DNA from: Bacteroidota bacterium
GTDB lineage: Bacteria > Bacteroidota > Bacteroidia > AKYH767-A > OLB10
Direction of reading: 5' to 3'
Length of the DNA: 64,000 nucleotides
Assembly (NCBI GenBank): GCA_016699635.1
Contig: CP064983.1
Coordinates: 3,176,078 to 3,240,077, forward strand
Made by a program: the position numbers and the translations under genes
Part shown: in pieces, positions 28,630 to 60,665 of the stretch
How positions within the stretch are numbered: position 1 is the first letter of the stretch
Layout: each line of letters opens with the position of its first letter
Notes under the pieces: generated by a model
Told to the model about the DNA's origin: nothing
Database searches by the model: none
Seen by the model: the letters and a program-made list of their open reading frames with translations, nothing else

Positions 28630-31600
28630 ATGAGTATGAAAAAGTTTGTTTACTATATTTTATTATTTCTGCTACCTGTAACAGCATGGTCGCAGTGTAT
28701 GATGACACCTGTTTCTTTACAGGACAGAATCAGTAATGCAACTATTGTTGTTGAAGCTACTGCCTTGCAACAAAACAGTTACTGGAACAACAGTAATGAT
28801 TTCATCTACACTTCCACTACACTTTCAATTTCTGCAGTTTATAAAGGCACAATTCAGGGCAGTCAGATTGCATTGATTACAGAAGGCGGTATTGTTGGTA
28901 ACATCATGATTAAGTCAGAACCATCTTTGAATATTAAACCCGGACAGAATGGAATATTTTTTCTAATTCCACACAGCCAGCCGTCAGGAAGTAAACTGTC
29001 AGGAATGTTTGAAGGATATGCTTTGAGTCAGAGTTTAATTTTGTTTGATGAAACAAGTAATTCAGCAACAGGTCCGTTTGAAAACTACAGTGACATCAAT
29101 GCATTACGAAATCAGATTATCAATGCTACAGGTGGCGTTCAGCGCATTTCTTCTATTGCACCACAGCAGGCACCTCCATCTGTAAATAAAATAATGATTC
29201 CGCCAACTATTGCTTCAATAGTACCGGCAACAACTACGGCAGGAACATTTTCAACAATCACAATAAACGGAAATAATTTTGGTGCCACCTATGTTAACGG
29301 AACTTCAAACGTTGAATTTCCTGATGCCAATACTGGAGGTGTAAGTTATATTTCTGCTCCGCAAAATCATATTCAGTCGTGGAGCAACACACAAATTCAG
29401 GTTTGGGTACCTACACAAGGTGGAAGCGGATTAATAAGAGTAACAAACAATCTTGGAGAAACTACAACTTCTGCAATTTCAATTACCATTAATTATAATG
29501 AAACAAATGTTGTTAGTGGTAGTAATTATTATCAACCCGACTTGATTAACAATAATGGAACCGGAGGTTATACTTTTCGTTACAACACAACATTTAATGG
29601 TAATGCTGCTGCTGTTGCTGCATTTGAAAGAGCATTACAAACATGGCGCTGTGGAACTTTTGTAAACTTCAACCGCTCGGGTACTACTGCAACAACTTGT
29701 CAGGCTTTAGACGGAACTAACTTAGTGACCTTTGATGGTTCATGTGCATTGCCTGCCGGAGTTCTCGGAATTTCGTACAGTTATTACAGTGCATGCGCAA
29801 CAGGCGTTTGGTATCTTAACGAAAACGATTTAAAGTTTCGTACCAATGGAACCGGAGGCATAAACTGGAACTATGGCCCTGCTGCAACCGGTGGTGGCAA
29901 TTTCGATTTTGAATCAGTTTGTTTGCATGAATTAGGACACAGTCATCAGTTAGGTCACACTATTGTGCCTGTGACAGTAATGAATTATGCTATTGGCCCA
30001 AATACAGACAGACGTACACTTACACCAATCAGTGAAACTGCCGGTGGAAATGATATAATGAGTCGTAGTGTGGTGACTAATGCCTGCGGACCAACAGCTA
30101 TGGTTGCGCTTTCTGCGGGAAGCTGTGCCATCAATGCACCTATTGCTGATTTTAATGGTACACCACTGACAGGATGCAATACGCTGAACGTAACTTTTAC
30201 AGATGCATCCATCAATACTCCAACATCGTGGACGTGGTCTTTTCCAGGAGGGGTACCAAATACTTTTGTAGGACAGAATCCTCCTGTAATTTTTTATGCC
30301 GCACCGGGCAACTACGCAGTTACCCTAACTGTAAGCAATGCATTTGGAAGCAATACACTTACTAAAACAAATTATGTACAGATTGCAACCTGCCCTCCAC
30401 CTACACCTGATTTTACAGCTAATCCAACAACCGTTTGTCAGGGAAATACTGTACAGTTTGTAGATTTGAGTACCAACACACCAACAAGCTGGAGTTGGAC
30501 TTTTCCGGGAGGTACACCGGGAACATCTACTGCACAAAACCCTGTGATTACTTATGCCACTGCAGGAACTTATAATGTTACATTAACCTCAACTAATGCC
30601 TATGGCAGCAACACATTAACAAAAACAAATTACATAACAGTAAACAATTGCCCTGCTCCACCGGTCGCTGATTTTAGTGCATCGCCAACAACACTGTGTT
30701 CCGGTGGTACAGTAAACTTCACCGATCTTTCAACTAACACACCCACATCATGGTCGTGGACATTTGCCGGTGGCACACCGTTATCATCTGTAGCACAAAA
30801 TCCAACAATAACGTATAACACACCCGGCACTTACGCAGTTACATTAATTGCAACTAATGGTGGTGGCTCGAACACAAAAACTGTATCAGGATATATTACG
30901 GTAAATCTTTGCTCTGCACCTGTTGCATCTTTTTCAGGATTTCCTACAACCATCTGCGAAGGTCAGGCTGTGACTTATGTAGATCAGTCAACCAACTCAC
31001 CATCATCATGGGCATGGACTTTTACCGGTGGGCGCACTGCAGCATCTGCCTTGCAGAATCCTGTTATTAGCTATGCTACTGCAGGCACCTACACTGTTTC
31101 ATTAACTGCAACAAATGCTTTTGGCAACAACACTTTTACTAGAACAAATTACATCAATGTTGTTACATGTCCGTCACCTGGAACAGGACTTATTGTCAAT
31201 GACGGGTCACTGATTTTTGTTCAACCTACTGCAATGATGCATGTTGAAGGTGGTGTTATTAATCAGGATAACCTGAGCAACATTGGTACATGGGATAACT
31301 CCGGTCAGGTGCGTATACAAGGCGACTGGACAAACAATTCATCTGGAAATGCTTTTATCAACAGCAGCCCGGGTGAAGTGGAACTGTTTGGCGCCAATCA
31401 AACTATAAGAGGTAGTACACCTACTTTCTTCTTTACCTTAAATCTGACAGGCACAGGTATAAAAACCCAAAATATTGATGCAACGGTTCAGGTCACAAGG
31501 AAATGTGATGCATGTTACCAATACAGCACCGGCAGCTATTACGCGTACAGGTGGACTTAACTCAACTCCTGTTCAGGGTTTTGTGAGTAGCACAGGCAGT

Positions 31601-32629
31601 GGTAAGTTGTGGCGAAACACCAACACTACATCTGTGTATTTATTTCCTGTAGGTTCTTCAATACCTCCCGCACGTTTTCGTCCAGTTGAAATAAAGCCAT
31701 TGAGTGCAACACCCAATACTTTTGCTGTACGTATGGTTAATAATGACCCGAATACTGATGGTTTTAACCGTGCTGTACGTGAACCCACCTTAGGTGCAGT
31801 AAATGCAGGATGGTATCAGAAAATAAACAGAGTTTCCGGTAGTTCGTTAGCGGAGTTTTCGCTTTATGCCGATGATGCACAGGATGCCATTGCTTCATGG
31901 CCATTACTCAAACTTTGTCAGTGGGGACAGGCTGCCCCTCCTGTATGGTGGAAAGATATTGGCGGTGCTGTAACTCCGGGCGCTTCACCTGTGTTAGGAT
32001 CGGTGCTGCGTACCAACTGGAATAATTTCAGTAATACAGAAAATTTCAATATTGCACCAGAATCAAATCCACTGCCTGTTGAATTACTTTCGTTTACCGG
32101 TAACTGTAAGAACAACATTGTTAATCTGAATTGGACAACTGCATCTGAAATAAACAATCATTATTTTGAATTGCAACAATCAGCCGATGGAAATGATTTT
32201 GTTACTATAGGTCGTGTTGAAGGTAATGGTACCACCATCAAACAAAATTTTTATTCTTTTACCATTGATCAAAAAACTGAACACACATTTTTCCGATTGG
32301 TGCAATATGATTTTGATGGAAGAGCTAATGTATTGCCGGCTATTTTAGTTTCGTGTAACACAGAAAGTCCTGCAACAGTAAATATCAACCTGATGCCCAA
32401 TCCGGCAAAAGATGTTTTTGTTTCTGACATATATCTTCCTGAAAAAACACAACTCTCCATGAAGGTATTTAATACCATCGGACAATTGGTTATGGAAGAA
32501 CAATGGACACTTGATGCAGGCTATCATAAACAAGCAACACAGGTTTCTACTCTTGCAAAAGACATTTACAATATCCGCTATACTTCAAACTCGTTTAACA
32601 TAGTAAAACAAATAGCTATTGTAAAATAA
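28630..32629 (+). pseudogene. Large T9SS cargo zinc metallopeptidase with 4 tandem PKD domains and a C-terminal Por sorting domain; one frameshift at 31475..31560
   Basis: The 976-aa ORF has a signal peptide, an HELGHSHQLGH zinc-binding motif and four ~85-aa PKD repeats (SWTWSFPGG.P). The overlapping 384-aa ORF carries the CTD (PNPAKDVFV...DIYNIRY...). Confidence 0.65.
30136..31165 (+). repeat. Four tandem, diverged PKD-domain coding repeats (~255 bp each)
   Basis: The protein-level block starting D/SF(S/T)A.P(T/S)T.C recurs four times. Confidence 0.6.
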
Positions 32630-33139
32630 TTGCTGATGTCAGAAATTGTATTGCGTAGTTTGCAAATTGACGATGCAGAAATATTTGCTTTGCATGCCAA
32701 CAACAGTGCAATTGCAGATAACATGACCAATCAGTTTCCCTTTCCATATACGAAAGCACATGCACTGGAATTTATCAGAAGACTTAACGGTTTTAAACCT
32801 GCTCAGGTATTTGCAATTGACTTAGATGGAGAGGCAATAGGTGCTATTGGACTACACCCGCAGACTGACATTTTTTTAAAAAATGCAGAGCTTGGATATT
32901 GGCTTGCTGAAAAATATTGGGGTAAAGGATTTGTTTCCATTGCTATTAAAAAAATAGTTGAATATGGTTTCAGCAGTTTTGAAATAGATAGAATTTTTGC
33001 ACGCCCCTTTGGCAGCAATAAAGCTTCGCAACGCGTATTGGAAAAAACAGGATTTGTTTTGGAAGCCCGCCTTGAAAAAATCATTTATAAAAACAATCGT
33101 TATGAAGATGAGTTGATTTATGCAATCAGGAGAAAGTGA
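32630..33139 (+). CDS. GNAT-family N-acetyltransferase (RimJ/RimL-like)
   Basis: The acetyl-CoA binding region reads RVLEKTGFVLEARL. Confidence 0.75.
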   Translation: MLMSEIVLRSLQIDDAEIFALHANNSAIADNMTNQFPFPYTKAHALEFIRRLNGFKPAQVFAIDLDGEAIGAIGLHPQTDIFLKNAELGYWLAEKYWGKGFVSIAIKKIVEYGFSSFEIDRIFARPFGSNKASQRVLEKTGFVLEARLEKIIYKNNRYEDELIYAIRRK

Positions 33140-43237: not shown

Positions 43238-44460
43238 ATGAAAGTACCATTTGCGCCACCTCGCATGGACCAACGTGTCATTGATGAAGTTGCAGACACA
43301 CTTCTTTCGGGCTGGATAACAACAGTGCCTAAGACTAAAAAGTTTGAAAAACTACTTACAGCATACTGCAATGTGCCTAATGTGCTTGCCCTGAATTCTG
43401 CTACTGCAGGTCTTGAAATAATGCTTCGCTGGTTTGGTGTAAAAGAAGGTGATGAAGTAATTTTACCGGCATACACCTACTCTGCTACTGCCAACGTAGT
43501 GATTCATTGTGGTGCAAAACCTGTGTTTGTTGATGTGGGTGATGATTTTAATATTCTGCCCTCTGAAATTGAAAACGCCATCAACAAAAATACAAAGGTG
43601 ATTATGCCTGTTGATTTTGGTGGGCTGCCCTGCGATTTTCAAAAAGTAAATAATATATTTCAATCAGAAAATATCAAAAATAAATTTGTGCCTGCAACCG
43701 ATGTGCAGCAGCAATTAGGACGCATTTTAGTTTTGTCTGATGCTGCACATTCTTTTGGCGCTACTGTCAACAATATTAAAACTGGAGCGCTGACCGATGT
43801 TTCTGTTTTTTCTTTTCATGCTGTAAAAAACCTAACTACAGGTGAAGGTGGTGCCATTGCATTAAACCTGCCAAAGCCTTTCGATAATCAAAGCATATAT
43901 GACTATCTGTGCATTTACACCTGCATGGACAGAATAAAGATGCACTGGCAAAAAATGCAAAAGGCAATTGGCGTTACGATATTATTGAAGCCGGATTTAA
44001 ATGTAATATGACAGATATTATGGCGTCCATTGGTCAAGTAGAACTTGAACGCTATGCAGAAACATTAGAACGCAGAAAACAAATTGTTGCAAACTACAAT
44101 GAGGCATTTGCAAAATATCCATGGGCGCAATTGCCCGAATTTAAATCAAACTGGCGTGAAAGCTCCTATCACCTCTATCCTATCAGAATAAAAAACTGTA
44201 CAGAAAAACAACGTGATGCCATTATGCAAAAAATGTTTGATGCTGATATAGCAGTGAATGTACATTTTATTCCTGTTCCTATGTTTTCGTTTTATACCAA
44301 ATTAGGTTATAGTCTTCAACATTATCCCAAAGCAAAGGACAACTATGAAAGAGAAATTTCTTTACCGCTTTTTTACAACCTCACCGAAGAACAACAACAA
44401 TATGTTATTGACAATTTGATAAAGGCTGTGAATAAGACGCTGTACATCACTTGCAATTAA
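43238..44460 (+). pseudogene. DegT/DnrJ/EryC1/StrS-family PLP-dependent sugar aminotransferase with a frameshift at ~43905-43925
   Basis: DALLSGWITTVPKTKKFE...SATAGLEIML is followed by the Schiff-base lysine region FSFHAVKNLTTGEGGAI, then NMTDIMASIGQVELERY in a second frame. Confidence 0.75.
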
Positions 44461-44920
44461 CTCCTGAATGATTTTGTGCTTTTCTTCTTCATTAAAATAT
44501 TCTGTGCTTTTTGAATGATTTTTTTGCCCATGTTTTACACTTTTTTTGTGTAACTCTATTTTAGGGCAAGACATTGCAGGTTTTCAAAAGATTCATCTCC
44601 TACTTTAACCTCCCGATAGCTATCGGGATTATCAGACTTAATTCTCTTGTGCCATCGAATATAAATTTGATACAATGTTAGGTCTTCTTGTTTTAATTCC
44701 GGTGTTATAACCTAACTGCCGCATCCATCTAAGAAGCTGTCCGTGTTCTTCAACCTCACCTGTGTATTTTTCCCAAATCTGTACTTTGGTACATTGAGTT
44801 GCAATTAGCTCCTGAATGATTTTGTGTTTTTCTTCTACGGCAAAATATTTACCCGCTTTTTGAATGATTTTTTTATCCATGTTTTACACTTTTTAGTGTA
44901 AACCTATTTCAGGACAAGAC
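44450..44920 (-). mobile_element. Degenerate IS3-family remnant: two direct copies of a ~130-bp segment (44450..44578 and 44796..44920), an orfA-like gene, an 18-bp perfect palindrome, and no orfB/integrase
   Basis: Both copies begin ttgcaatta(a/g)ctcctgaatgattttgtg and end gacaagacat. The palindrome tcccgatagctatcggga lies at 44610..44627. Confidence 0.55.
44638..44880 (-). CDS. IS3-family transposase OrfA-like HTH protein (80 aa; remnant)
   Basis: KYFAVEEKHKIIQELIATQCTKVQIWEKYTGEVEEHGQLLRWMRQLGY fits the HTH_Tnp_1 pattern (F..E.K..IV.E......I..KYGI.....L..W.RQ). Confidence 0.5.
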   Translation of the reverse strand: MDKKIIQKAGKYFAVEEKHKIIQELIATQCTKVQIWEKYTGEVEEHGQLLRWMRQLGYNTGIKTRRPNIVSNLYSMAQEN

Positions 44921-44943: not shown

Positions 44944-45363
44944 CTACTTTGCATTTAGTTCTTCCCTTAGTTTATTCATTGAGTTTTCAAACAGTTTATT
45001 GCTTTTCAATTTACATTCCCAAATAGTTAATACTGTCCAACCTGATTTTTTTAATTCTGCCTTTACTTTTTTGTCTCGTTCAATATTGTTCTGAATTTTT
45101 GTTTTCCAAAATTTTGCATTTGAAGTTGGCAACTTTGCCTTGTTGCAATTATGTCCATGCCAAAAACATCCATGAACAAAAACTATCGTTTGATACTTGG
45201 GTAAAACTATATCTGGTGTCCCTGCAAGAGTTTTTACATTTTTCCGAAACTTAAATCCTTCTTTAAACAAAAACTTTCTGACTGATATTTCCGGCTTAGT
45301 TTCCTTCCCGGAAATTGAAGCCATAATTTCACTTCGTTTCCGTTTAGAAAAAATGTCAGCCAT
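44944..45363 (-). CDS. vsr: Very-short-patch-repair endonuclease (T:G mismatch-specific)
   Basis: The Vsr signature is FVHGCFWHGH...TPDIVLPKY...VLTIWECKL. The start overlaps the upstream gene's end by 8 nt. Confidence 0.85.
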   Translation of the reverse strand: MADIFSKRKRSEIMASISGKETKPEISVRKFLFKEGFKFRKNVKTLAGTPDIVLPKYQTIVFVHGCFWHGHNCNKAKLPTSNAKFWKTKIQNNIERDKKVKAELKKSGWTVLTIWECKLKSNKLFENSMNKLREELNAK

Positions 45364-47137
45364 TTAATGCACGAATTGATTCAATAATTGTTACAATATC
45401 GTTGTAACTATTTGGTTTATCACTCAGCCACTTTTCTAAAAATGTTTTCTCACTTGCTTCAATATTTCTCTTATCACCAGTCATTGCCTCCGCAACTAAA
45501 AGAAATTTCTCTTTGAAATCTTGTGTAGCGTTGATTCTTTGAATGTATTCAATTTTACCCATCGCAGTCAAAATAGTTTCAGCTAAAACTTGATTCCAAA
45601 TAATTTCTTCTGGAACTGATAATGGTAAGTAGGAAACATTTCGCAAATAAAATTTCAGATACTTTTCTCGCAACACTTTTTCTTGGTCTGCTCTTGCCCC
45701 TGCATTTGGATTTCCGTCAGGATAAAACTTAACATTGACTCCTGTTTGATTTTGGATTTCCTGTTGGTATCGTTCATTGGTTTGTTCTGCTGCTACAATA
45801 GAATCAGGATTAAAGTGAGCATGTCTTTGGTCTCCGTCAAAAACTATAAACTTATTCCGTTCGTTTGCATGACTGTAAACACTAATGAAATGTTCTTTAA
45901 TAACGCTTTCACCTCCCGTGTAAAAAGTAACATTGAAAAGTGAAGCAGTTGCTTGTCCTAATTCTCTTAATACACCATCAATAATTTGCTTTGAAAGCAA
46001 ATCTTCAACAATGATTTGTTTTCCTTGCCGGATTTGTTTGCTCCAAATGATAAAACGCTTCATCAGGTGTGATTTCATTTTTAACATTGAATTTTCCAGA
46101 AGGTAATAGTGAGAAAACTTTTATTGCGTTTGGCGGAAGTTCCTCAATAATACTTGGTGAGTGGGTTGAGATTACAACTTGTAATCTTTTTCGTCTTGTT
46201 TCTTCAAGCAAAAATTGCTTCAATCGTTTTTGCGCTCCCGGATGCAATGAAACTTCCGGCTCATCAAGTAAAATGAGAGAATATTCTTTTGCTCCTAAAA
46301 CTTCAAGCACCAACTTTACAACTGCCATTTCTCCGCTTCCTGCAAACGCTTCGGAATATGAGTAACTGGCGGTTTCAAAAATTACGGAGTAGCCCCATTC
46401 TTCAAAAAGTTTATGCTTTACAAACTTTCCCGAAACATATTTTTTACCAAGTATGGTAGAAATATGCTGAAGTTCAATTGCTGTGAAAGTTTTGAGTTGC
46501 TCGTTTTTGTTTTCACCGTAGCGATGAATTATAACATTTGTTCCGTCAATAATTCTTCGAAGAAAAACTGAATGCTTCCGTAAGTAGTCCTGTTTGTTAT
46601 TTATCGTTTTAGACTTTCTTGGTTTCTTGAAATAAAAGTATTTGTCAAATGCACTTAACTCTGAACGGAAATCAATATACACTACATCTTTTTCAATCGG
46701 TTGATTTCTTTTTCCCTCTGCTATCTTCTGCATTCCGTAGCTGATATTCGGTCTTGCAGTTTCCCAATAGTCCGGATTGTTTCGTTTGAAAATTCTTTGT
46801 TTCAAAACTTCAAGCGGTCTGCCACGATTGTCTTTGTAAACATAAAAGAAGCTATGCCTATCGCCTCCTTCCGAAACTTCTACAATCGGGTCAACAGCAG
46901 TTGAAAACCAAAATTCAAACGGAGTATTTTTTTCGGTGCTCCATAAAGTGCATGAAGTGTTGAACTTTTTCCCGAACCGTTTTGCCCTACAAAAACTGTC
47001 AGAGGAAAATCAAAAATTATTCGTGTGTTTTTTTCAAGGTTTCGGAAATATGGAAACTGAATATACTCAATGAAATTTCTGAAAGCATTTCTTGCTTTCA
47101 TTCTTGAAATTTCAGCTATGAGAGTTGGTATATTCAC
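45356..47137 (-). pseudogene. OLD-family nuclease-like protein: ABC-type ATPase (Walker A/B, D- and H-loops) fused or coupled to a C-terminal Toprim domain; three ORFs in shifted frames
   Basis: ORF 46880..47137 has Walker A VGQNGSGKSS. ORF 46005..46805 has Walker B/D-loop LILLDEPEVSLHP and H-loop ISTHSP. ORF 45356..46087 has Toprim motifs IIVEDLLSK and FIVFDGDQ. The ORFs overlap by 83 and ~75 nt. Confidence 0.6.
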
Positions 47138-47142
47138 AAATG

Positions 47143-48770
47143 CTATGGTTTTTCAGAGTCGTTAAGTCGTTTGAATAAATGAGATAACAAACTAAGGAAG
47201 TCCAAACAATCTTTTTCTGAAAACAAACCTGTTTTACTTAACTCAAGGTGTTCCTCGTGTTGCAAAGGGTTTCTGCCGCCTGCAACAATACCTTCGGATA
47301 GATAGTGTTGTCCTTCTTCAATATTGGTTATTGTATCTTTTGTAAAATCTGTTCCATCAGTTTTCTTATACTTTTTCGTTACCGAAAGTTTACGACCAGA
47401 AAAAACTTCTCCCATCATACTTCTTTCGCTGCCATTTGTGCTACCTGACTTCTTTCTTACTTCTGAGGTATATCGTTTTAATGCTTCAATAAAAGCCGTG
47501 TAATAGTCAGCACTCTGATAATATTTTTCAGACACCACTTTAATTTCATTTTCTAAATTTCTCCAATGGAGATTTGCATATTCAGGGGCTATATCATGCA
47601 ATAATCTTGTCACCACCTGTTGTGTGTCTTCTGAAATTTCAGGTGTGTCATCCAATAGGTTTACAATTGTTTCAACTTGCCCTTGCACATTTTGAGGAAG
47701 TTTTTCTAACCAATCTTTTACATTCAAGTTTACCTTTTCACTTATCTTCTTTTTCTTTTTCTCCTTACGAAATTCACGCCACTGCCTTTCTATTATTGAA
47801 AGGCATGATGCAATATATTTCCTGAGTGCGGATGTCTTGGCATTTTCCCAGTCAATGGATTGACGGTTTGTTGAGATTACATCTTCTTCCCAATTGTCAA
47901 TAAAATCTACATTCAACCATCCTGTGGCATAAGAATAAAAGTGGCTTGATTCTGATGGACCAAAAAATTCAGGTGTGTTAACCATTCTGCCGTTAGCAAA
48001 AAGTGTAACGCCTCTGAGAGCAGCTTTGAGAGGTTTTTCTGTGGTAATTATTGTTCCATGAATTTGAACTTTGTCGGAATAATCCTTCTCATTTACTTTG
48101 ATAATTTCTTGTATGTCCCACTCAAATTCAGGAGTAATGTTATCATACTTCAGTTTGTTATCAATCTTTATCGGCTTGCTATCATTCAGCAATAAGTAAA
48201 CAATAAACTTGTCTTGAAAGTTGAAAAGTTTTGCAATGCTTTCTGCATATTCTTCAAGAGGAAATCCGGTTTTTCTTTTCAGATTGGTTAATGTGATTCT
48301 TGTTCCTTTGAAAATTTCCTTTTCTGATAAATGGTCAAATCTGGGTTCATAATCTTTCCCTTTCCAAGCAAGTATTTCATTCCAGTCAAGATTGAAACTT
48401 ACTCCCGATTTTCCTTGGCAAGTTGTAATGTTTATAGTGTCGCCAATTCCAAATAGAGCTAACTTTCCTAATCCTTTTTTTCCTGTTGGAATTCTATCGC
48501 AACTTGATTTTTGACCTTCCTCTCGTCTGTTTCTTCCTATTCTTAAAAAGTAATCATTCACTTCCGCAAACGACATTCCCGTTCCGTTATCCTCAACAAT
48601 TACTTTTTCTCCCCTTCGTCATACAAACGCACATGAACCTCTGTAGCACACGCATCATAAGCGTTTGCAATTAATTCCGCTAATGCCGGTGGCATGTTGG
48701 AATACATTTTAACACCAAGATGTTTTATGGTGTTAGCTTCAAAGGTCATGTAAAGTTTATCATTGCTCAT
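47143..48770 (-). pseudogene. MutL/MORC-like GHKL ATPase with a C-terminal HEPN (Rx4H) domain; frameshift at ~48577-48600
   Basis: ATG at 48770 overlaps the dcm stop as ATGA. Bergerat motifs: N-box ELIANAYDA, then in the 477-aa ORF frame G1 (DNGTGM), G2 GKKGLGKLALFGIGD and GTRITL. The C-terminal HEPN motif is GGRNPLQHEEH. Confidence 0.6.
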
Positions 48771-49844
48771 TTCGGATTACAATTTATGATGCTTGCAGCA
48801 ACACGCATTGATAATTGCGGTGGAACCGCATTGCCAATCAATCTTGCTGTTGATGCAATTGAAGTAGAAAGAAATTTGTAATCAGTGTCAAAAGTTTGCA
48901 GCGTTGCACCTTCTCTTAATGAAATGGCTCTGTTCTGTTCTGGATGAGCAAATCTTCCGTTGGTTATACTATAAAACTTTTGTTGTGATTGTTGGTCCAG
49001 GTTTGTCCCAAAACATTCTACCATAGATGTCTTGAAATGAGTTGTCTTTGCCAACATAAGCCGGAATTTGCAAGTCAGTATCTTTCCACGAAGTTCTTGT
49101 TCCTCCGTCATGTGGAGTTAAGAGCAATCGCTTTAAATTATTGTCTGATAGTCCGGCTGAACTGTGAAGGAACTCCGTCTTATCTTTTTGCCCCGCTGTA
49201 ATTGGTTTGAAAACCTTTTTATTGCCAATGAAATTCCGAACTGTCGGCAGCTTTGTTTTTGTGTCGGGAAGTGGCAAAGATATTTTGTCGGTAACTCGTG
49301 ATGCAATCAACAGGAATCTTCTTCTTGTTTGTGGCACTCCGTAATGGCTGGCATTAATTACTTTGTATTTGTAGTGATAGTTTTCTTTTTCTAGAAAGTC
49401 AAGAAATGATTTCAAAGGGCTTTCATCTAAACGATTTAAAATCCCTGGAACATTTTCAACCACTATGTAACCAGGTTTGAAGTAATCAACAAATCTCTGA
49501 AAGTCCTTCAATAAGTTTTTTGTTTCATGTGCCTTAGTTTTATCGGTTTGAATCTTGCTCCAGTATTGGCATGGGCTGCACCCAATGAAAATCATTTTTT
49601 TGTCATTGCGTTTTACTTTCAGCTCTTTTTCAATTCTTGAAAAAGCTAAGTCCTGAATGTCAGCATGTATAAATTTTGAATCGGGATTATTAGTTGTATA
49701 CGTTTCTTTACACTCTAAATCAATATCAATTCCGCCAACAACGTTTACTCCTGCCTTCCGAAAACCGCTTGTCATGCCGCCTCCGGAACAGAAGAAATCC
49801 ACAGCTTTAAATTTTCTTTTTGTCTTTGATTTTTTACCTTTCAT
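48767..49844 (-). pseudogene. dcm: DNA (cytosine-5)-methyltransferase, frameshifted between the TRD and motif IX
   Basis: Motif I is DFFCSGGGM, IV is GCSPCQYWS, VI is ENVPGIL and VIII is QTRRRF. In a second frame, IX is RAISLREGATLQTF and X is GNAVPP. The junction is at acaaaagtttta. The likely start is the ATG at 49844. Confidence 0.8.
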
Positions 49845-49904
49845 AAACGGCTGCGAATTTATGATTTTCACTCTTAAATTCATACGAAATCGCAATAAAG
49901 CGTT

Positions 49905-49966
49905 GGCAAAAAGTGGCTCTTTTTGTTTTGCCTCTGTGGTGGGTCGTGTGTTGCGGCAAAACAAAA
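49905..49966 (-). promoter_or_regulatory. Overlapping alternative hairpins in the dcm 5' leader
   Basis: ggcaaaaag/ctttttg (49905-49925) and ttttgttttgcc/ggcaaaacaaaa (49921-49966, 22-nt loop) share the ttttg segment, so they are mutually exclusive. Confidence 0.3.
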
Positions 49967-50339
49967 TGTGCCACTTGTGCGGTTGCCATAGAAATCATTT
50001 TTTTTTGTGCGTTGGCGGTGTTTTAATTTTTTGAAGGTTGCCTGTTGGTTAGAAGTGCTGTCATAATTATTACTTGTCATCTTAAATGTTTGTTCAAAGT
50101 CCGTCCGTTTAATGTCCGCATGGTCGCAAATAGAGTTACCGATAACGAAGAAGGGATTAACGAAGTTTAAAAAAGAAGGAGATAGAAAGCACACACTCTC
50201 CGCACCGATACGCTTTATTACCTGCACTCACTTTCAAGTGGCTGTAATGCCCTTCTTTTTTAAATTTCGTTTAATCTATTGTTATGCGCGCGTGCTACGA
50301 TCTACACGAAGAGTCAGATCTATATTCACTTATTATAAA

Positions 50340-51169: not shown

Positions 51170-51300
51170 TTTGCCTTAGGAAGTTTGAATGTTTGGCAAG
51201 TTGCAAGGTTTAGAAGGTTACAATGTTTTGAATGTTTGAAGGTTTTGAATGTTACAATGTTTTGAAGGTTTGAGGGTTTTTAAAATGTTGTTGCCTTGAA
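51170..51300. repeat. Short-period tandem repeat tract
   Basis: Units aaggtt(t/a)/gaatgtttg/acaatgttttgaa recur about 8 times. Confidence 0.5.
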
Positions 51301-51339
51301 CTTGCAATGTCTAAATTGAATTCTCTTTCAAAATTTTCA

Positions 51340-51545
51340 AACTTTTCAGCCGTGGCTAATTTTCAAACTTGTCAGCCGTTGCTGATTATCTAATTATCAA
51401 ATTTTCAAATTACCTCAGTATTATTTACTCCATCACTCCTATCAGCCGTGGCTAATTTTCAAATTATCTAATTATCAAATTTTCAAATTACCTCAGTATT
51501 ATTTACTTCATCACTTCTATCAGTTGTGGCTCAGCCGTGGCTGAT
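51340..51545. repeat. Two direct copies of a ~65-bp unit, each bounded by the motif tcagccgtggct(a/g)at
   Basis: The unit tctaattatcaaattttcaaattacctcagtattatttact(c/t)catcact(c/t)ctatcag occurs at 51388..51452 and 51466..51528. The motif tcagccgtggctaat or a variant occurs at 51346, 51372, 51442 and 51530, and on the reverse strand at 33306. Confidence 0.55.
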
Positions 51546-51654
51546 TATCAAATCATCTCATTTTCAAATTATCAAACTCTCTTTATCATTCATAAAAAAA
51601 AACACCGAAATCTAAAAAACTGATTCCGGTGTTTTTCTAAACGGGATTATTCTT

Positions 51655-54600
51655 TTACCGTTTTATAATCTTTGAATTGTAAAATTTATTGTCTGCTTTT
51701 ATTTGCAGATAGTACATGCCTTGTGAGATATCATTCAGCGGCATTTTATAAACATCTGAAATGATATTAGCTGCTGAATACACCAGCTTACCATCCATTG
51801 CAAATAATTTCACTTCAACATTTTTAAAATCTTTGGTAATTATGGTTAACTCATCCTGAGCAGGATTGGGATAAACAGTTACACTATTGATAGAACTAAA
51901 ATCTTTAGCCGAAGTTACCATTGTTGATGGTGGAAACTGAATATTATCGAGCATAGCCAAATCCTGTCCGCCCGTGCAACACACTTCATCCTTAATATAT
52001 GCCCACGTGAGTGTATGTTGTCCTAAAGTTATCGGATATGATTTATATGCCCAGCCATACACACCGGAATAGGAATCAATCAATGTACCATCTATGTAGA
52101 AACTGAGAAAATCCCATCCCATTTCACTTGATATGAGCATATAAAACGAAATAGAATCGTTGTTATAAACATTTACTGTTATTGCCAGATCAGAAGTGTC
52201 GCCATCAGCAATTGTTGCAGAACGTGCAGAATACGCCCCTTGAAAAGTTCCGCTGTTAGTAATAGTCCATGGATGACTTCCATTATTAAGCCAGGGATAT
52301 GTAGTGAAATTTCCGTATTCGAAATTCTCTAAAATCTCCCCTGCAACCATGTTAAATGTCTTGTTGTCGGAATATGGGTTGGCATCAATATTAAATTGCA
52401 TATCGAAGGTTGAACCAATCTGAATGTTTGATGCAAGTGAGACATTAAAGGTAGCATCAACATCAGATAATGACTGTACAACACCTGTATTGTACGAAGT
52501 ATTGTTGATAGTAAGATATGGACTGCTTGTTGCCAGCGTTGCTGTTGAAGCTGTAGTTGCACTATGTCCTTTGTTATTTGTCTTTATTGTAACATCGGCA
52601 GTTTCACCTGGTTCAAGAATACCGTTGTTGTTTCCTGTAGGGTCAGACACTGTAATGGAATATACTTGCAGCATAGGTGCTTTCAACAAATGTGTTATGG
52701 ATGTACTCCACACTGTACCTGCTGAATCGGTTAATACAATATCAAATACTGCAGGTGTGTTATCAGGAACAAAAGCTGCAACAGTGTAATTAAATGCATT
52801 GGTAATTCCAGCAGCGTTTCCACTCTGAATATTCACTTTGTTTAAACTGCTGCTGTTTATTGTAACATACGGACAAGTAGTAGTTACCGTAAGTCCAACC
52901 CCCACAGCATCGCCCTGTCCAAAGTTTTCAAGCATTAAGTCAACATCTATAATCTCATTATAATCTGCAAGTTGATTTGCATTTCCTCCTGCATCATTAA
53001 TAACATTGCTTGTCAGCGAAACGTAAGGTCCTGTAGTTGCTACAACAGGAATTGCCACCATGTATGGAATGCCGTTAAATGCAGTAATTGTTAAATACAG
53101 AGTATCGAGTGCAGTAATGGTGTTGAAATTTAAAATTACATTCCCTCCTATCACCAATCCTGTTGCAAGTATTTGTCCATTGCTGCTCAAACATGCAAGT
53201 CACTGTCTGTATTACAGGCAATATTTAGTGAAGCACCGGGAAACAATACAGGGCTGTGACTAGCAGTAATTGCATAAGGTGTTGCTGTACGAACATTTAA
53301 TGAAGGGTCGCCAAAACAATGCCATGTGTCTGTCATTTCGAAACCTGCTGCACCATACTGATCATTCATGTGCATGCAGCCATTCATACTCAGTCCGCCA
53401 AAAGTTCTTTTAATGTTTGAAGAATTTGTGCCAACCAATAAGTCAACCATTTCGTCCTGTGCATCCATTGGCGGATTCCATGATTGGTTTATGCTCGACA
53501 TAAATGTGGCTACTGCACCTGAAGGCTGTCCATTATATTGTGCTCTCAAAAATGATTCTGCAAGACAAGTAGCATTTGCAAACTCTCCATTGACACAAGC
53601 TACACTCCAGATAAAAGGCAACATGCCTGTGTTTGTTAATGCTGTTGCATTGGCATTAGAAAAACCTGTTGTGCCTAATGAAGCAGAACTTCCATGACCA
53701 GTATAAGTGATTATAGAAGCACCATTATTTATTTCTGATGATAACATTGCAGCAGTAGGATTACCCGACATATCGTTTCCACCTTGTGAGCCATCATACA
53801 ACTCAGCAACATCAGTATAAGTGAATGCTAATTCTTTTCCGCGTATCACCTGCTGATGCTGAAAGTCCATTTCATTGTCATCACCCGGTCCTTGGTCAGA
53901 GCCAATGCATATTCCTTTTGAATACCAGTTTACACCTGGCGTTGGCAACATTTCATAATCAACAGTACGCTGAACTTGTGTAGTAACATCTGCCACTGTC
54001 TGTGCACTGAATCGTCCAACAAATACTTCTGCATAAGAATCATTCCCCACAAGATAACCATACGATGGGTCAGATGCACCACCTGATAAAACAGGAGTGG
54101 GAATTTGTTGTGCATCGCCTACCAACAAAACATATTTCAGATTATGTGTGTTGTAATAATTCTGAATGAATGTTTTTATCTGTTGTGCTGTGCTGCCTGC
54201 TGTGGCTACATCAACCATTGAAACCTGCAAGCCTCTTTTTATCTTCCAGTCAATAAAGGGCTGCATAGCTGCCATAAAAGATGCATCACTGATAATGAGC
54301 ATTTCACCATCTTCATTCACCGGTAAATAATTAATAAATGAACCTGCATTGCGAAAAACGTTCTGATAGATATTTGCAAAATCACGATCAACTTTCTGGA
54401 GTGATGTTGTGCGAGATAATGTATTAACAGAAGTGCCGGCTTTACTTTGCAGGGTAACTTTAAATTTTGAAATTACTTTTAAAGTTTGTGTTGCTGCATT
54501 ATAGCTGAATGGATTTACTACCACTGTCTGCCCACGAAAATCACGAAGTATAAACGGGCTACGCAAAAAGCCACTGTTAGCAGGAAAAAAAACATTCTGA

Positions 54601-55025
54601 CTGTAAATATCTCCAAAGCGATAAGGCACATCAGATGGCTTAATATCTCTGTAAAGATTTCCTTTAGATGGTGCTATCTGAATATTCTGAAAAGTAAGTT
54701 CCTCAATTGACTCAATATTCAGGCTCATATCTCCGTCATCAGGAATAATCACAGATAAAGCAAACTTTGGCAAATCCGGTGTTCCTTCTTCCATTCTTGG
54801 AGTCATTTCGGGGCTTGAAATGGTATAGTACTCTCCTGCTAAAGATTTTACTCTGTGCTTTTCAAATCCTGAAACAGAAATTTCCATTACAGTATTATCA
54901 GGTGTACCACTTACTATAACAGCAGATTTTGAAGGATTGTCAGAGGTAATCTTAACCCATTCTGCATTTCCCTGTAAAGCAAACAATGCTATAAAGAAAG
55001 TGGTAACGATTGTCTTTTTTTGCAT
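51655..55025 (-). pseudogene. Gingipain-like C25 cysteine peptidase with Ig-like/FN3-like domains and a T9SS C-terminal sorting domain; frameshift at ~53190
   Basis: The 612-aa ORF has a signal peptide, the catalytic His block ITYTGHGSS and the Cys block IWSVACVNGEF. The 511-aa ORF, overlapping by 4 nt, ends in the CTD VYPNPAQDELTI...MYYLQIKAD. Confidence 0.7.
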
Positions 55026-58588: not shown

Positions 58589-60665
58589 CTAATAATTTAA
58601 AAGGTAATTCATCTGTTCAGATACTTTCTGTGCATTGGGTATCATCGTAAATTCTAAAGTTGAATTTAATGGAATTGCAGGCATATTCTCCGATCCCATA
58701 GCAACAACAGGTGCATCTAATGCAGTGAAACATTGCTGCTGTATGCGACCTGAAAGTGCTTCGGCAAATGAATTTTTTAGAGGCTCTTCTGTCAGCACCA
58801 AACAACGGTGATGCTTTCTTACTGACTCAAATATTGTAGTTTCATCTAATGGATTAAGAGTACGAAGGTCAATAATTTCAATTCTTCCTTTAAACTCTTG
58901 TGCTGCTGCCTTTGCCCAGTAAACTCCCATGCCGTAAGTAATAACTGTCAGCGTGTTTTCATCCTGCAAAGCCTCTGCCTGTTGCACTATTCTTGCTTTT
59001 CCAAATGGAATAATATAATCTTCATCAGGTTCAATAGTGCGTGCATCTTCTGTGCCTTTTATCTTACTCCAGTAAAGTCCTTTGTGTTCAAATATTACTA
59101 CAGGATTTGGATCATAATATGCTGCTTTCATCAATCCCTTCAGGTCAGCACCGGTAGATGGATATGCTACCTTAACACCTCTGATGTTTAGCACTACTGT
59201 TTCAACACTTGAAGAATGATATGGCCCACCACTTCCATAAGCACCAATAGGAACACGGATTACGCAAGATACCGGCCATTTGCCATTACTTAAATAGCAG
59301 GAACGGCTTACCTCTGTAAAAAGTTGATTTAAACCCGGCCATATATAATCTGCAAACTGTACTTCAACAATCGGTTTACATCCAACAGCACTCATGCCAA
59401 CTGTAGAACCTATGATAAATGCTTCCTGTATGGGTGTATTAAAAACCCTGTCATCACCAAACGTTTTAGCTAACGTTGCAGCCTCTCTGAAAACGCCACC
59501 AAGTCTGGCTCCAACATCTTGCCCGTAGAAAAGACATTCAGGATGTTTTTGAAGCAATTCTTTAACAGCAAACAATGCACAGTCAACCATCACTGTTGGC
59601 TCCTTACCGGCAGGCTGACGCACACCTTTTTCTTCTGTCACTGTTGTAGGTGCATAATCATGCTTAAACAAATCTTCGGGCAATGGGTCGTCAGCGGCCT
59701 TGGCCTTTGCGAAATCGTCTTCTACAAGGGTTCTTGTTTCTTTCTTTATTGCATCCAACTCATCAGAAGTAAAACCTGCTTCTTCAAGTTGTTGGATAAA
59801 CTTTGGTAATGGATCTTTTTTCTTTGCTTCTTCCAAATCATGTCTGTACCACTCTCTGCGAACACCTGAAGTATGATGTCCAAGTAATGGCACTTTAGCA
59901 TGAATTAAAAAAGGTCTGCGTTCAGTTCGGATAATATCAAGAACTTCTTTGATGGTATTGTAAGACTGAAAAAAGTCGGTACCATCAATACTGCGTGTTT
60001 CCAATCCTTTAAATCCTTTTGCATATTCAGCAGCATTCATGGTGCGAATCTCTGAGGCATGTGCTGAAATATCCCACTCATTGTCCTGAACAAAATAAAG
60101 TATAGGAAGCTTTTTAAGCACTGCCATCTGAAAGGCTTCAGAAACTTCACCTTCTGTTACATGCATCGCCAAGTGAACAAACTGTGACAGGATATTCACC
60201 TTCGGCATATTCTACAAGATTTTGGTTTTCGAGATAATGCATCCCCAAAGCAATTCCTGTCGTAGGTATAGCCTGCATTCCTGTAGCACTGCTTTGATGA
60301 GGAATCTTTGGCATATCATCACGTCTCAACGAAGGATGTGAATAGTATGTACGTCCACCTGAAAACGGATCATCACGTTTAGCCATAAGCTGCAACATCA
60401 GTTCATAGGGTGTCATTCCTATTGAAAGCAAAATACTGTCGTCACGATAATATGCTGAGAGATAGTCAATGCTTTTAAGTTGAAGACCTAAAGCAATCTG
60501 CACTGCCTCATGTCCACGCGAGCAGGCATGAACATAACGAGCAGTAAATGTTGCATGCTCCTCGTACAAATCGCTCATGGCACGTGCTGTGCACATCAGC
60601 CTGAATGCTTTGAGAACAGTTTCTGTTGATATAGGTGTAGATTCCAATTTTTTTTCTGCAATCAT
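58589..60665 (-). pseudogene. 2-oxoacid (branched-chain/pyruvate) dehydrogenase E1 component, fused alpha-beta, with a frameshift at 60147..60208
   Basis: The 172-aa ORF is the TPP-binding alpha N-terminus. The 539-aa ORF holds the alpha C-terminus and the transketolase-like beta subunit (GLMKAAYYDPNPVVIFEHKGLY...). Confidence 0.8.

Follow-up and report, generated by a model that had tools for sequence, protein, structure and literature searches.

A Dcm-type operon with two ATPase effector genes between dcm and vsr in a Bacteroidota genome, probably a mobile relative of the NmeAI system

Organization of the cassette

The 64,000-nt stretch of Bacteroidota DNA analyzed in this work (the window) carries a cassette of four minus-strand genes in the order dcm, GHKL-HEPN, ABC-Toprim and vsr. 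The cassette is best explained as an intact, mobile Dcm-type operon related to the NmeAI system, in which one methylase and one Vsr would serve two interchangeable and stackable effectors. We assign a probability of about 55 % to this reading, whose mechanistic part is inferred. The relevant features of the window are the following.

44944..45363, minus strand: vsr, very-short-patch-repair T:G mismatch endonuclease (Pfam Vsr, PADLOC Vsr)
45356..47137, minus strand: OLD-like ABC ATPase carrying a Toprim-like nuclease domain at its C-terminus (Pfam, PADLOC, AF2/Foldseek)
47143..48770, minus strand: paraMORC-type GHKL ATPase with a Ymh-family HEPN domain (Pfam, conservation, AF2/Foldseek)
48767..49883, minus strand: dcm, C5 cytosine DNA methyltransferase (Pfam, TIGRFAM, motifs, intact orthologues)
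49911..49976, no strand assigned: inverted repeat upstream of the dcm start (repeat search)
~46015 (A extra) and ~46927 (A missing): breaks in the ABC gene (comparison with intact assemblies)
~48604: break in the GHKL gene, one A missing
~48978: break in dcm, one extra A

The four genes are coupled in one operon. An ATGA at 48770-48767 is common to the dcm stop and the GHKL start, a 5-nt gap separates the GHKL TAG (47145-47143) from the ABC-Toprim GTG at 47137, and the end of the ABC-Toprim ORF (45356) overlaps the vsr start (45363) by 8 nt. These junctions and the HEPN motif RNPLQH had been reported in the initial annotation and were confirmed, and the overlapping or abutting genes bear out its tight operon structure. 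The block end of 49966 given there needed revision: this coordinate is a mechanical TTG ORF start, and dcm itself probably begins at 49883 or 49844. The inverted repeat just upstream of it, with 22-nt arms (91 % complementary) and a 22-nt spacer, could be an operator or a regulatory hairpin. The IS3 orfA remnant proposed at 44638-44880 was not recovered, as this ORF, used in its 108-aa uninterrupted form from assembly L005, gave no Pfam or NCBIfam match even at E ≤ 1.

Frameshifts in the window

In the raw window vsr is the sole intact ORF; dcm lies in two pieces, the GHKL gene in two and the ABC gene in three. All four breaks are 1-nt indels in short A-runs of 3-8 nt. The window is ~99.7 % identical to two independent assemblies, L001 and L005, both of which have the four genes intact, and the cassette is intact also in L089 and L090. 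Within the cassette the window differs from L001 by the four single-A indels and one substitution (47205), and within 5 kb it differs from L005 by four A-run indels and no substitutions. Similar indels break other genes along the window, DegT and the C25 peptidase among them, with the same density outside the cassette as inside. Because the ~99.7 % identical assemblies are intact and unrelated genes of the window are split alike, the frameshifts are most likely assembly errors, an artefact rather than biology.

Properties of the encoded proteins

Profile searches of the frame-corrected proteins bore out the four domain architectures proposed from the raw letters. Among the Pfam models, DNA_methylase, HATPase_c_3, Hypoth_Ymh, AAA_15/AAA_21 and Vsr were found as anticipated, whereas Toprim and DUF4435, also expected, gave no match to ABC-Toprim.

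The corrected Dcm (358-371 aa) is 100 % identical to the products of the intact genes of L001 and L005. It matches DNA_methylase (E 1.7e-54) and TIGR00675 dcm (E 4.7e-43), and the motifs FxGxG, PCQ, ENV, QxRxR and GNAVPP are present in the translation. The variable (target-recognition) region is nearly gapless among the window, Neisseria, Methanoperedens and ABC-only loci, with 50-62 % identity; judged by sequence, one Dcm clade is common to both effectors. Vsr, a protein of 139 aa, matches the Vsr models of Pfam (E 3.3e-33) and PADLOC (E 7.7e-32).

In the GHKL-HEPN protein of 542 aa, a GHKL ATPase with an S5-like transducer spans aa 1 to ~310 and is followed by a long helix and, at the C-terminus, by a Ymh-family HEPN domain (HATPase_c_3, E 4.6e-19; Hypoth_Ymh, E 2.7e-14), whose R-N-x3-H motif is coded at 47274-47257. 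The corrected protein is listed as 100 % identical (rounded) to P0001, the single differing residue corresponding to the substitution at 47205. Across 15 homologues there is no variation at E32, N36, D61, G63, G65, N501 and H505, and conservation of R500 reaches at least 90 %. The protein is a predicted RNase. Its AF2 model matches the N+M part of Hsp90/TRAP1, MORC2/3, SMCHD1 and MutL-NTD, and in this comparison neither a DNase fold nor a DNA-recognition domain was found.

ABC-Toprim consists of 593 aa and matches AAA_15 and AAA_21 (~1e-18). The best of its PADLOC matches is HEC-04 (E 1.4e-35), accompanied by AriA, ATPase-Toprim_I-B and Old. Identity of the repaired protein to P0121 is listed as 100 % (rounded), the repair reading Q for T at the 46015 junction. 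Foldseek comparison of the AF2 model (pLDDT 86.8) placed the Thermus OLD nuclease 6p74 at the top (E 1.4e-12, 593 columns), followed by the retron Eco8 OLD and GajA, and a PDB profile search ranked AriA first and also returned 6p74. When C-terminal domains were searched in isolation, eight of nine matched HEC-04 profile positions 310-391 and seven of nine the HEC-01B Toprim protein. The Walker A lysine K57 (46969-46967) is invariant, and so are E378 (46006-46004) and the pair D434 and D436 (45838-45830, all minus strand), this E/D triad having been scored in 27 homologues. By position count the triad coincides with E319, D375 and D377 of HEC-04. This indirect support points to a Toprim-like nuclease, predicted to be a DNase, as the C-terminal domain.

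Genomic neighbourhoods and spread

Among 79 genome loci of GHKL-HEPN, Dcm was found within 300 bp in 64 and within 3 kb in 72, and Vsr within 3 kb in 43. At metagenome loci of the ABC gene Dcm lay within 400 bp in 35 of 66; where at least 1.5 kb of flank was available on both sides it was present within 3 kb in 25/32, and at loci annotated by clustering in 23/27. Compact triads of methylase, GHKL-HEPN and Vsr occur at many loci, the one in Methanoperedens being flanked by housekeeping genes. Two-gene abc-dcm pairs overlapping by 4 nt were also encountered, as was a dcm-abc-vsr triad in L091, so that either effector may stand alone between dcm and vsr.

The initial annotation had described the genes as coupled and had raised the question of linkage in other genomes. 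Both families proved strongly linked to one Dcm clade, but the effectors are seldom neighbours: an ABC gene adjoins 10 of 79 GHKL-HEPN genes (~13 %) and a GHKL-HEPN gene adjoins 6 of 66 ABC genes. Where both are present they are tightly linked; two alternative gene orders occur, and the loci belong to distant phyla. The ABC/GHKL identities at the joint loci (82/78, 80/76, 54/75, 43/59, 50/53, 51/55, 45/49 and 38/45 %) show that divergence of the two proteins is roughly correlated. The proposed mobility of the cassette was corroborated. The four-gene arrangement recurs in Flavobacterium, Candidatus Kuenenia, Maribellus and Cyclobacteriaceae with 69-87 % protein identity, the GHKL-HEPN protein of Methanoperedens archaea is 80 % identical, and the cassette spreads horizontally.

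Comparison with known systems

The NmeAI-type Dcm/Vsr system of Neisseria has the same order of methylase, GHKL plus Hypoth_Ymh protein and Vsr, and the same domain architecture. The Neisseria homologues are 46 % (GHKL-HEPN, full length) and 52-56 % (Dcm, including the variable region) identical; unlike this system, the window cassette has the extra ABC-Toprim gene between GHKL-HEPN and vsr. Orlowski and Bujnicki (2008, PMC2441816) included the GHKL and Hypoth_Ymh architecture as a putative REase subfamily, R.NmeAIP; the "P" of this REBASE entry marks the enzyme as putative. ParaMORCs were placed in R-M systems with a proposed role in DNA looping (Iyer 2008), and the paraMORC-Ymh HEPN fusion was reported in R-M neighbourhoods, with a PrrC-like RNase role proposed (Anantharaman et al. 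2013, PMC3710099). PrrC and RloC likewise fuse an ATPase to a HEPN-type RNase coded within an R-M locus, and the logic proposed for them is RNase suicide once DNA-level defence fails (PMC3710099). Their ATPase is, however, of the ABC and not the GHKL type, and the minimal triads have no separate restriction endonuclease to back up.

The type II enzymes BbrUII/HgiDII (GTCGAC), also partnered by a C5 methylase, are homologous in the N-terminal GHKL and middle regions. The window protein matches NF050001 over aa 7-382 only (profile positions 2-407, E 1.2e-64) and PADLOC REase_II PDLC03485 (E 5e-30). In place of the C-terminal ~250 residues of the BbrUII/HgiDII profile it has a coiled helix and HEPN, and it is no equivalog, since 219 bits fall below the cutoff of 550.

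HEC-04 is a validated single-gene anti-phage defence in which mutation of E319, D375 and D377 abolishes protection (bioRxiv 10.1101/2024.01.29.577857); it acts without a methylase, an observation that sits uneasily with the main reading. ABC-Toprim resembles it in the position of the Walker A lysine and the E/DxD triad and in being nested in a defence operon. The two differ in length (a 494-position profile versus 593 aa, the best stretch covering profile positions 157-391 only) and in context, HEC-04 being linked to Hma systems whereas the window gene and most of its relatives are tied to a Dcm methylase. IbfA has been reported as a HEC-04 homologue. Relatives on E. coli plasmids share just ~24 % identity over aa 297-531.

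An ABC ATPase head with a C-terminal Toprim is the design of the OLD family, comprising Class 1 (P2 Old and Thermus OLD), Class 2 (GajA of Gabija), Class 3 (retron Eco8) and Class 4 (PARIS AriAB). The gene in the window is not solitary, and no UvrD-type GajB, retron or separate AriB lies in the window. Canonical Gabija was rejected for want of a helicase and canonical PARIS for want of AriB, in agreement with the initial annotation. The classes reviewed in PMC10568477 include no Dcm-linked context. The suggestion that the system may be undescribed was too strong: each protein family is already known, GHKL-HEPN as R.NmeAIP/paraMORC-Ymh and ABC-Toprim as a relative of HEC-04, but neither the four-gene combination nor a systematic Dcm linkage of the ABC-Toprim clade was found described in the literature searched.

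Alternative explanations

The most serious competitor, plausible though clearly less so than the main reading, is that a HEC-04-like gene is embedded in an NmeAI-type module and two independent systems are co-transcribed with no interaction or shared methylation logic. HEC-04 was discovered embedded within other defence systems and functions alone, and each effector lacks the other at ~90 % of loci. The ABC clade is nevertheless not embedded at random: the near-constant Dcm neighbour at the loci annotated by clustering, including the overlapping abc-dcm pairs, the same Dcm clade serving both effectors and the constant position of the ABC gene within the dcm...vsr bracket all argue against this alternative. 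It is rather doubtful that ABC-Toprim is a PARIS-like guard that senses phage anti-restriction or anti-methylase proteins and responds with Toprim cleavage of tRNA or other RNA, causing abortive infection. The PADLOC AriA models (E 3e-23 and 9e-20), the first rank of AriA among PDB profiles and the close linkage to a modification enzyme suit this role, and PARIS itself is triggered by anti-restriction proteins, its AriB being a Toprim tRNase. Here, however, ATPase and Toprim are fused, DUF4435 was not detected, the two-gene abc-dcm loci contain no other restriction component to guard, and the best structural matches are DNA-cleaving OLD nucleases.

Slightly less probable still is a decaying pseudogene array, in which the four frameshifts would be genuine mutations or phase-variable switches. 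In the window dcm, the GHKL gene and the ABC gene are all interrupted, homopolymer tracts often make R-M genes phase-variable, and the homologous locus of Neisseria gonorrhoeae truly has dcm and GHKL split. Against this stand the indels unaccompanied by substitutions relative to L005, their equal density outside the cassette, where DegT and the C25 peptidase are among the genes split, the shortness of the A-runs and the intact cassette in four other assemblies from the same population. A repair module, in which the MutL-like GHKL and MutS/RecF-like ABC ATPases would aid Vsr at Dcm-induced T:G mismatches, is the least likely explanation. MutL and MutS modulate Vsr in E. coli and Neisseria according to PMC6116569, Iyer 2008 remarked on the MutL-Vsr parallel for paraMORCs, and every gene of the cassette accompanies Dcm and, in many cases, Vsr. 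Yet the HEPN RNase and Toprim nuclease residues are conserved, the nearest characterized relative of ABC-Toprim is an anti-phage gene toxic on induction, ~45 % of GHKL-HEPN loci and the majority of ABC loci had no Vsr detected within 3 kb, and defence genes typically show such a sporadic distribution with transfer between domains of life.

Proposed mode of action

In the preferred reading, the Dcm-type operon with two stackable effectors, the C5-methylase would mark host DNA, possibly at CCGG by analogy with M.NmeAI, and T:G mismatches arising from 5mC deamination would be repaired by Vsr. The dcm-vsr slot would house two ATP-dependent effectors, each of which occupies it alone elsewhere beside the same Dcm clade, and the signal would be incoming DNA without methylation. 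Since neither effector has a recognizable DNA-reading domain, the methylase may lend sequence recognition in a type III-like manner. The absence of each effector from ~90 % of the loci of the other implies that they need not cooperate and perhaps do not. Unmethylated DNA would be nicked or degraded by ABC-Toprim through OLD-type two-metal chemistry, although a Toprim nuclease may act on tRNA instead of DNA, as PARIS AriB does. ATP-driven dimerization of the GHKL clamp would bring two HEPN domains together into a composite RNase site, and RNA cleavage there would arrest the infected cell, providing a second layer of defence.

Organization of the cassette and probable origin of its frameshifts

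The initial annotation described four consecutive genes on the minus strand, dcm, GHKL-HEPN, ABC-Toprim and vsr, and this arrangement proved to be real, extending from 44944 to about 49883 with exact junctions:

48770-48767, minus strand, ATGA common to the dcm stop and the GHKL-HEPN start
47145-47143, minus strand, TAG stop of GHKL-HEPN, followed after a 5-nt gap by GTG at 47137
45363-45356, minus strand, 8-nt overlap of the vsr start (45363) with the ABC-Toprim end (45356)

In the uncorrected window dcm is represented by two ORFs, the GHKL gene by two and the ABC gene by three, and vsr alone is intact. All four frame breaks sit in A runs. The JGI metagenome contig L001 and the Flavobacterium sp. 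MAG contig L005 are about 99.7 % identical to the window, and their sole differences from it in the cassette are single-A indels at 48978 (+A), 48604 (-A), 46927 (-A) and 46015 (+A), together with one substitution relative to L001. The four genes are uninterrupted in L001, L005 and two further assemblies, L089 and L090. Like indels occur outside the cassette at similar density and break unrelated genes; the split genes confirmed in the window are those for DegT (410 aa, unbroken in L005) and for a C25 peptidase with a T9SS sorting domain (a single 1124-aa gene in L001). Neighbouring ORFs on the same strand, in pairs or triplets that resemble single genes split by indels, were found at the following positions:

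6209-8379
26935-28351
28630-33139
43238-44460
51655-55025
58589-60665

They suggest that indel errors of the assembly run through the whole window, mostly in homopolymer runs. The frameshifts of the cassette are thus most likely assembly noise, and real pseudogenisation or phase variation is an improbable source of them, the same genes being open in four other assemblies. The breaks were mended by hand before protein analysis. The corrected GHKL protein is identical to the database protein P0001 (542 aa; 100 % when rounded) except for one residue, which corresponds to the substitution at 47205. The corrected ABC protein likewise matches the database protein P0121 (593 aa) at a rounded 100 %; a single residue was misread in the manual correction, which gave Q in place of the T of P0121 at the 46015 junction.

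Flanking sequences and mobility

The cassette had been regarded as probably mobile. Its horizontal spread is well supported by the loci described below, and self-mobility found no backing, as there are neither terminal repeats nor a GC anomaly: the GC content of the cassette (33-39 %) cannot be told from that of its flanks and gives no compositional sign of an island. A search for an empty insertion site through the flanking lipoprotein yielded two short contigs and no cassette-less allele, since the longer of the two keeps dcm. Pfam and NCBIfam scans gave no match for the adjacent ORF previously taken for an IS3 orfA remnant, and this assignment lacks family support. The following repeats were located around the cassette:

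44451-44545 and 44799-44894, tandem duplication (~349 nt) between DegT and vsr, segments 88-95 % identical
49911-49932 / 49955-49976, inverted repeat, 22 nt, 91 % complementary, within the gap of 400 nt that separates the lipoprotein gene from dcm
50159-50179 / 50251-50271, inverted repeat, 21 nt, 95 % complementary, in the same gap
51183-51280 and 51332-51576, two AT-rich repeat arrays, intergenic, between the lipoprotein and C25 peptidase genes

A small ORF with the peptide EEKHKIIQELIA begins in each copy of the duplication; no family match was obtained for it. One of the AT-rich arrays consists of about 5 copies of a 17-nt unit, and the other of about 2 copies of a 78-nt unit (94 % matching) with related 26-nt units. 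One of the two inverted repeats could terminate the lipoprotein gene, and the other could serve the cassette as an operator or regulatory hairpin. A scan for sigma-70 promoters gave 16 against 16.7 in shuffled sequences and a scan for intrinsic terminators 1 against 3.7; with no excess over the shuffles these counts carry no information, and Bacteroidota promoters lie outside the models of the scan.

Dcm and Vsr

The domain calls made for the four products were essentially right, as judged from Pfam/NCBIfam, PADLOC and AF2/Foldseek results. Among the Pfam families expected, HATPase_c_3, HEPN (Ymh), AAA_15/AAA_21, DNA_methylase and Vsr were detected and Toprim/DUF4435 was not. The corrected Dcm (PF00145, E 1.7e-54) contains all of the PCQ, ENV, QxRxR and GNAV motifs, and Vsr (PF03852, E 3.3e-33) is encoded by the gene that adjoins and overlaps ABC-Toprim. 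A methylase with its catalytic motifs and an adjacent Vsr are thus present, as in a Dcm-type type II R-M system of the M-R-V layout. Of the two proteins in the R slot, the place between dcm and vsr, GHKL-HEPN has no DNase fold by its AF2 model and a Foldseek search, and ABC-Toprim carries a predicted nuclease domain and no recognisable specificity domain.

The variable region of Dcm is 78 % identical to that of Candidatus Kuenenia and 50-62 % identical, in an almost gap-free alignment, to those from Neisseria, Methanoperedens and loci with ABC-Toprim only, from which it follows that one Dcm clade serves either effector. The site methylated by M.NmeAI is C5mCGG, and a Vsr belongs to the NmeAI system (PMC4676702, PMC7973814).

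The GHKL-HEPN protein

The GHKL protein was matched by HATPase_c_3 (E 4.6e-19) and, at its C terminus, by Hypoth_Ymh/TIGR02391 with E of about 2e-14 (PF09509, 53.5 bits, cutoff 25; TIGR02391, 54.1 bits, cutoff 39.45). The GHKL motifs and HEPN residues N501 and H505 do not vary among 15 homologues of 63-83 % identity, and R500 is conserved in at least 90 % of them. The AF2 model (pLDDT 73.5) comprises GHKL and an S5-like transducer, then a long helix and a helical domain; its Foldseek matches, over about 370-440 columns, are Hsp90/TRAP1 N+M, MORC2/3, SMCHD1 and MutL-NTD. The NF050001 (BbrUII/HgiDII) profile matched with E 1.2e-64, and the equivalog was rejected, as the 219 bits fall below the curated cutoff of 550 and only profile positions 2-407 of 659 are covered. 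The first 380 residues are homologous to these enzymes, whose C-terminal part is replaced here.

The GHKL and S5-like transducer followed by a Ymh domain with an Rx4-6H motif is the composition of a paraMORC-Ymh HEPN fusion, or R.NmeAIP-like protein of REBASE, which genome annotation labels simply "TIGR02391 family protein". A putative REase subfamily, R.NmeAIP, has been listed as having an N-terminal GHKL and a C-terminal Hypoth_Ymh domain, and HgiDII was given a GHKL N-terminus with an unassigned C-terminus (Orlowski and Bujnicki 2008, PMC2441816). The paraMORC GHKL ATPases were defined in R-M operons with Dcm and Vsr, where a role in DNA looping was proposed (Iyer et al. 2008, PMC2292703), and fusions of the Ymh HEPN to paraMORCs in R-M neighbourhoods were proposed to act as PrrC/RloC-like RNases (Anantharaman et al. 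2013, PMC3710099).

The ABC-Toprim protein

The ABC protein matched AAA_15/AAA_21 and has the complete ABC ATPase head of an OLD-family nuclease, in which the Walker A, signature, Walker B and H-loop motifs are all invariant. Its C-terminal 230 residues had no relevant Pfam or PDB sequence match: the isolated domain of six members gave only noise in Pfam at E<=10, neither Toprim nor DUF4435 among it, and the C-terminal alignment, used as a profile against PDB sequences, retrieved nothing relevant. The Toprim region of the PADLOC HEC-04 model (profile positions 310-391) was matched by 8 of 9 diverse C-terminal segments (best E 4.8e-6), and the HEC-01B Toprim protein by 7 of 9. The best structural match of the full-length AF2 model (pLDDT 86.8) is the Thermus OLD nuclease 6p74 (E 1.4e-12, 593 columns), followed by the retron Eco8 OLD and GajA.

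The HEC-04 model matched the ABC protein with E 1.4e-35 in two stretches, the best of which covers profile positions 157-391 of 494. This protein is about 100 aa longer than the model, and the Walker A lysine and the equivalents of the Toprim E/D/D triad are conserved; counting of positions puts invariant E378, D434 and D436 on HEC-04 E319, D375 and D377. HEC-04 is a single-gene ABC ATPase-TOPRIM defence embedded in Hma systems, and its activity is lost in Walker A and E319A/D375A/D377A mutants (bioRxiv 10.1101/2024.01.29.577857). IbfA is a reported homologue (PMC12111858). A review of OLD nucleases distinguishes the classes by their genetic surroundings, namely a single gene, a GajB helicase or a retron; methylases go unmentioned in it (PMC10568477).

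Canonical Gabija was rejected, as there is no helicase ORF at 42-53 kb of the window and GajA models gave weak partial matches. Canonical PARIS was likewise rejected, the protein being one fused polypeptide of which AriA models cover the ATPase part alone and in which DUF4435 was undetected.

Gene neighbourhoods

The neighbourhoods were compared in 79 genome loci encoding GHKL-HEPN and in 66 metagenome loci encoding ABC proteins of at least 30 % identity.

Genes found near the two effectors
Dcm within 300 bp of GHKL-HEPN: 64/79 loci
Dcm within 3 kb of GHKL-HEPN: 72/79 loci
Vsr within 3 kb of GHKL-HEPN: 43/79 loci
ABC homologue within 3 kb of GHKL-HEPN: 10/79 loci
Dcm within 400 bp of the ABC gene: 35/66 loci
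Dcm within 3 kb of the ABC gene: 25/32 loci (those flanked by 1.5 kb or more on both sides)
GHKL-HEPN within 3 kb of the ABC gene: 6/66 loci

The frequency of Dcm within 3 kb provides the R-M neighbourhood of a paraMORC-Ymh fusion, and many of the 79 loci are compact triads with GHKL-HEPN between methylase and Vsr. The 79 loci are distributed among Bacteroidota, Proteobacteria (Neisseria, Pasteurellaceae), Campylobacterota, candidate-phyla-radiation bacteria, Planctomycetota, methanotrophic archaea (Methanoperedens) and others. In Methanoperedens (L003, L004, L006, L054) the triad is inserted between housekeeping genes (Fae/Hps and carbamoyl-phosphate synthase), and the 80 % identity of its GHKL-HEPN to a Flavobacterium protein indicates recent transfer between domains of life. 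In Neisseria gonorrhoeae DSM 9188 (L061, 1458-4585) vsr is intact, dcm is split into 170 + 154 aa and GHKL-HEPN into 297 + 198 aa. The NgoAXIII methylase is reported to be truncated in all gonococcal strains, with which the split dcm, a candidate for the same locus, is consistent.

In one defence island of Chryseobacterium paludis (CP099966.1, L002) dcm, HATPase_c_3/HEF_HK, Response_reg_2 and Mrr_cat genes come immediately before GHKL-HEPN, after which lie an oppositely oriented HNH_2 gene and vsr. Two differing paraMORC-type systems adjoin here and appear to have one dcm and one vsr in common.

Clustering of the neighbours of 27 ABC loci placed Dcm in 23 of them. The further partners of the ABC gene vary:

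Partners of ABC-Toprim
None: two-gene abc-dcm pairs with 4-nt overlaps
Vsr alone: L091, in the order dcm-abc-vsr
HEF_HK paraMORC and Response_reg_2: Altibacter, Taibaiella
UvrD-PDDEXK helicase-nuclease: human-gut contigs

In the gut contigs (L105, L109, L111, L114) the ABC-Toprim relative is 38-39 % identical and ends a block of vsr, a YhcG-type PDDEXK gene (checked in L114), a UvrD-helicase/PD-(D/E)XK fusion (970 aa) and dcm, with an LlaJI-type restriction gene nearby in L111. As in Gabija, an OLD-like protein is paired here with a UvrD-like helicase, and a cytosine methylase lies between them. The most distant relatives kept, of about 30 % identity and 547 aa, have no adjacent Dcm (metagenome contigs L148 and L150); they come after a DEAD/ResIII helicase gene (981 aa in L148, a fragment at that position in L150) and a GmrSD-type gene, a context more like that of HEC-04 within Hma systems.

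The complete four-gene cassette was also found in Candidatus Kuenenia, with a transposase gene and a type IIG-like R-M gene as neighbours, and in Maribellus, Cyclobacteriaceae, Rhodohalobacter and Bacteroidales. Smithella and Ginsengibacter loci have both effectors, and an Ignavibacteria MAG and several metagenome contigs have the genes in the order dcm-abc-ghkl-vsr. In most loci the two effectors are apart. The annotated plasmid matches (H1, H13, H26) list neither dcm nor informative names nearby in PLSDB gene tables, which are incomplete.

Interpretation of the cassette

The neighbourhoods show one self-marking module, Dcm usually with Vsr, whose modular R slot holds paraMORC-HEPN, OLD-like ABC-Toprim or both. 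The cassette is not of an undescribed kind, as had been suggested, since GHKL-HEPN is R.NmeAIP-like, paraMORC-Ymh fusions are known and the ABC protein is HEC-04/OLD-like; it is an NmeAI-type paraMORC-HEPN R-M-like operon with a stacked, Dcm-linked HEC-04/OLD-like ABC-Toprim gene. In the literature searched, the ABC ATPase classification of Krishnan et al. 2020 excepted, two points appear to be new: this ABC-Toprim clade is systematically linked to Dcm, and the effectors can replace each other or be stacked in the R slot.

The favoured reading is that such a module provides a defence gated by methylation, with two effectors. Unmethylated DNA would be attacked by ABC-Toprim, and ATP-driven dimerisation of the GHKL clamp would assemble the HEPN RNase site and lead to cell arrest, with sequence recognition perhaps lent by the methylase. 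The main rival is that an autonomous HEC-04-like gene is simply embedded in an NmeAI-type operon, which accounts for the effectors being usually apart and leaves the near-constant Dcm adjacency of this ABC clade unexplained. A PARIS-like guard role, real pseudogenisation and a repair-accessory role are weaker alternatives to the methylation-gated defence.

A tentative joint proposition, to which we give a probability of about 0.3, is that the "R" of NmeAI-type triads is a methylation-gated RNase rather than a DNase and that the HEC-04-like ABC-Toprim clade is an unclassified, Dcm-coupled class of OLD nucleases. The GHKL clamp would read unmethylated DNA, perhaps via the methylase, and switch on the HEPN RNase, so that restriction would amount to an abortive-infection response; ABC-Toprim would be an ATP-dependent restriction subunit replacing the RNase or stacked with it under one methylase.

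Dcm/Vsr-linked cassettes of this type are widespread. If the R-slot effector is an RNase, or an OLD-type ATPase-nuclease under cytosine-methylation control, the textbook equation of R-M with DNA cutting would need an addition, and in either case a long-standing "putative" class of REBASE would gain a mechanism. OLD-nuclease research gains a new genetic context, in which the signal licensing cleavage, the absence of 5mC, may be unusually manipulable.
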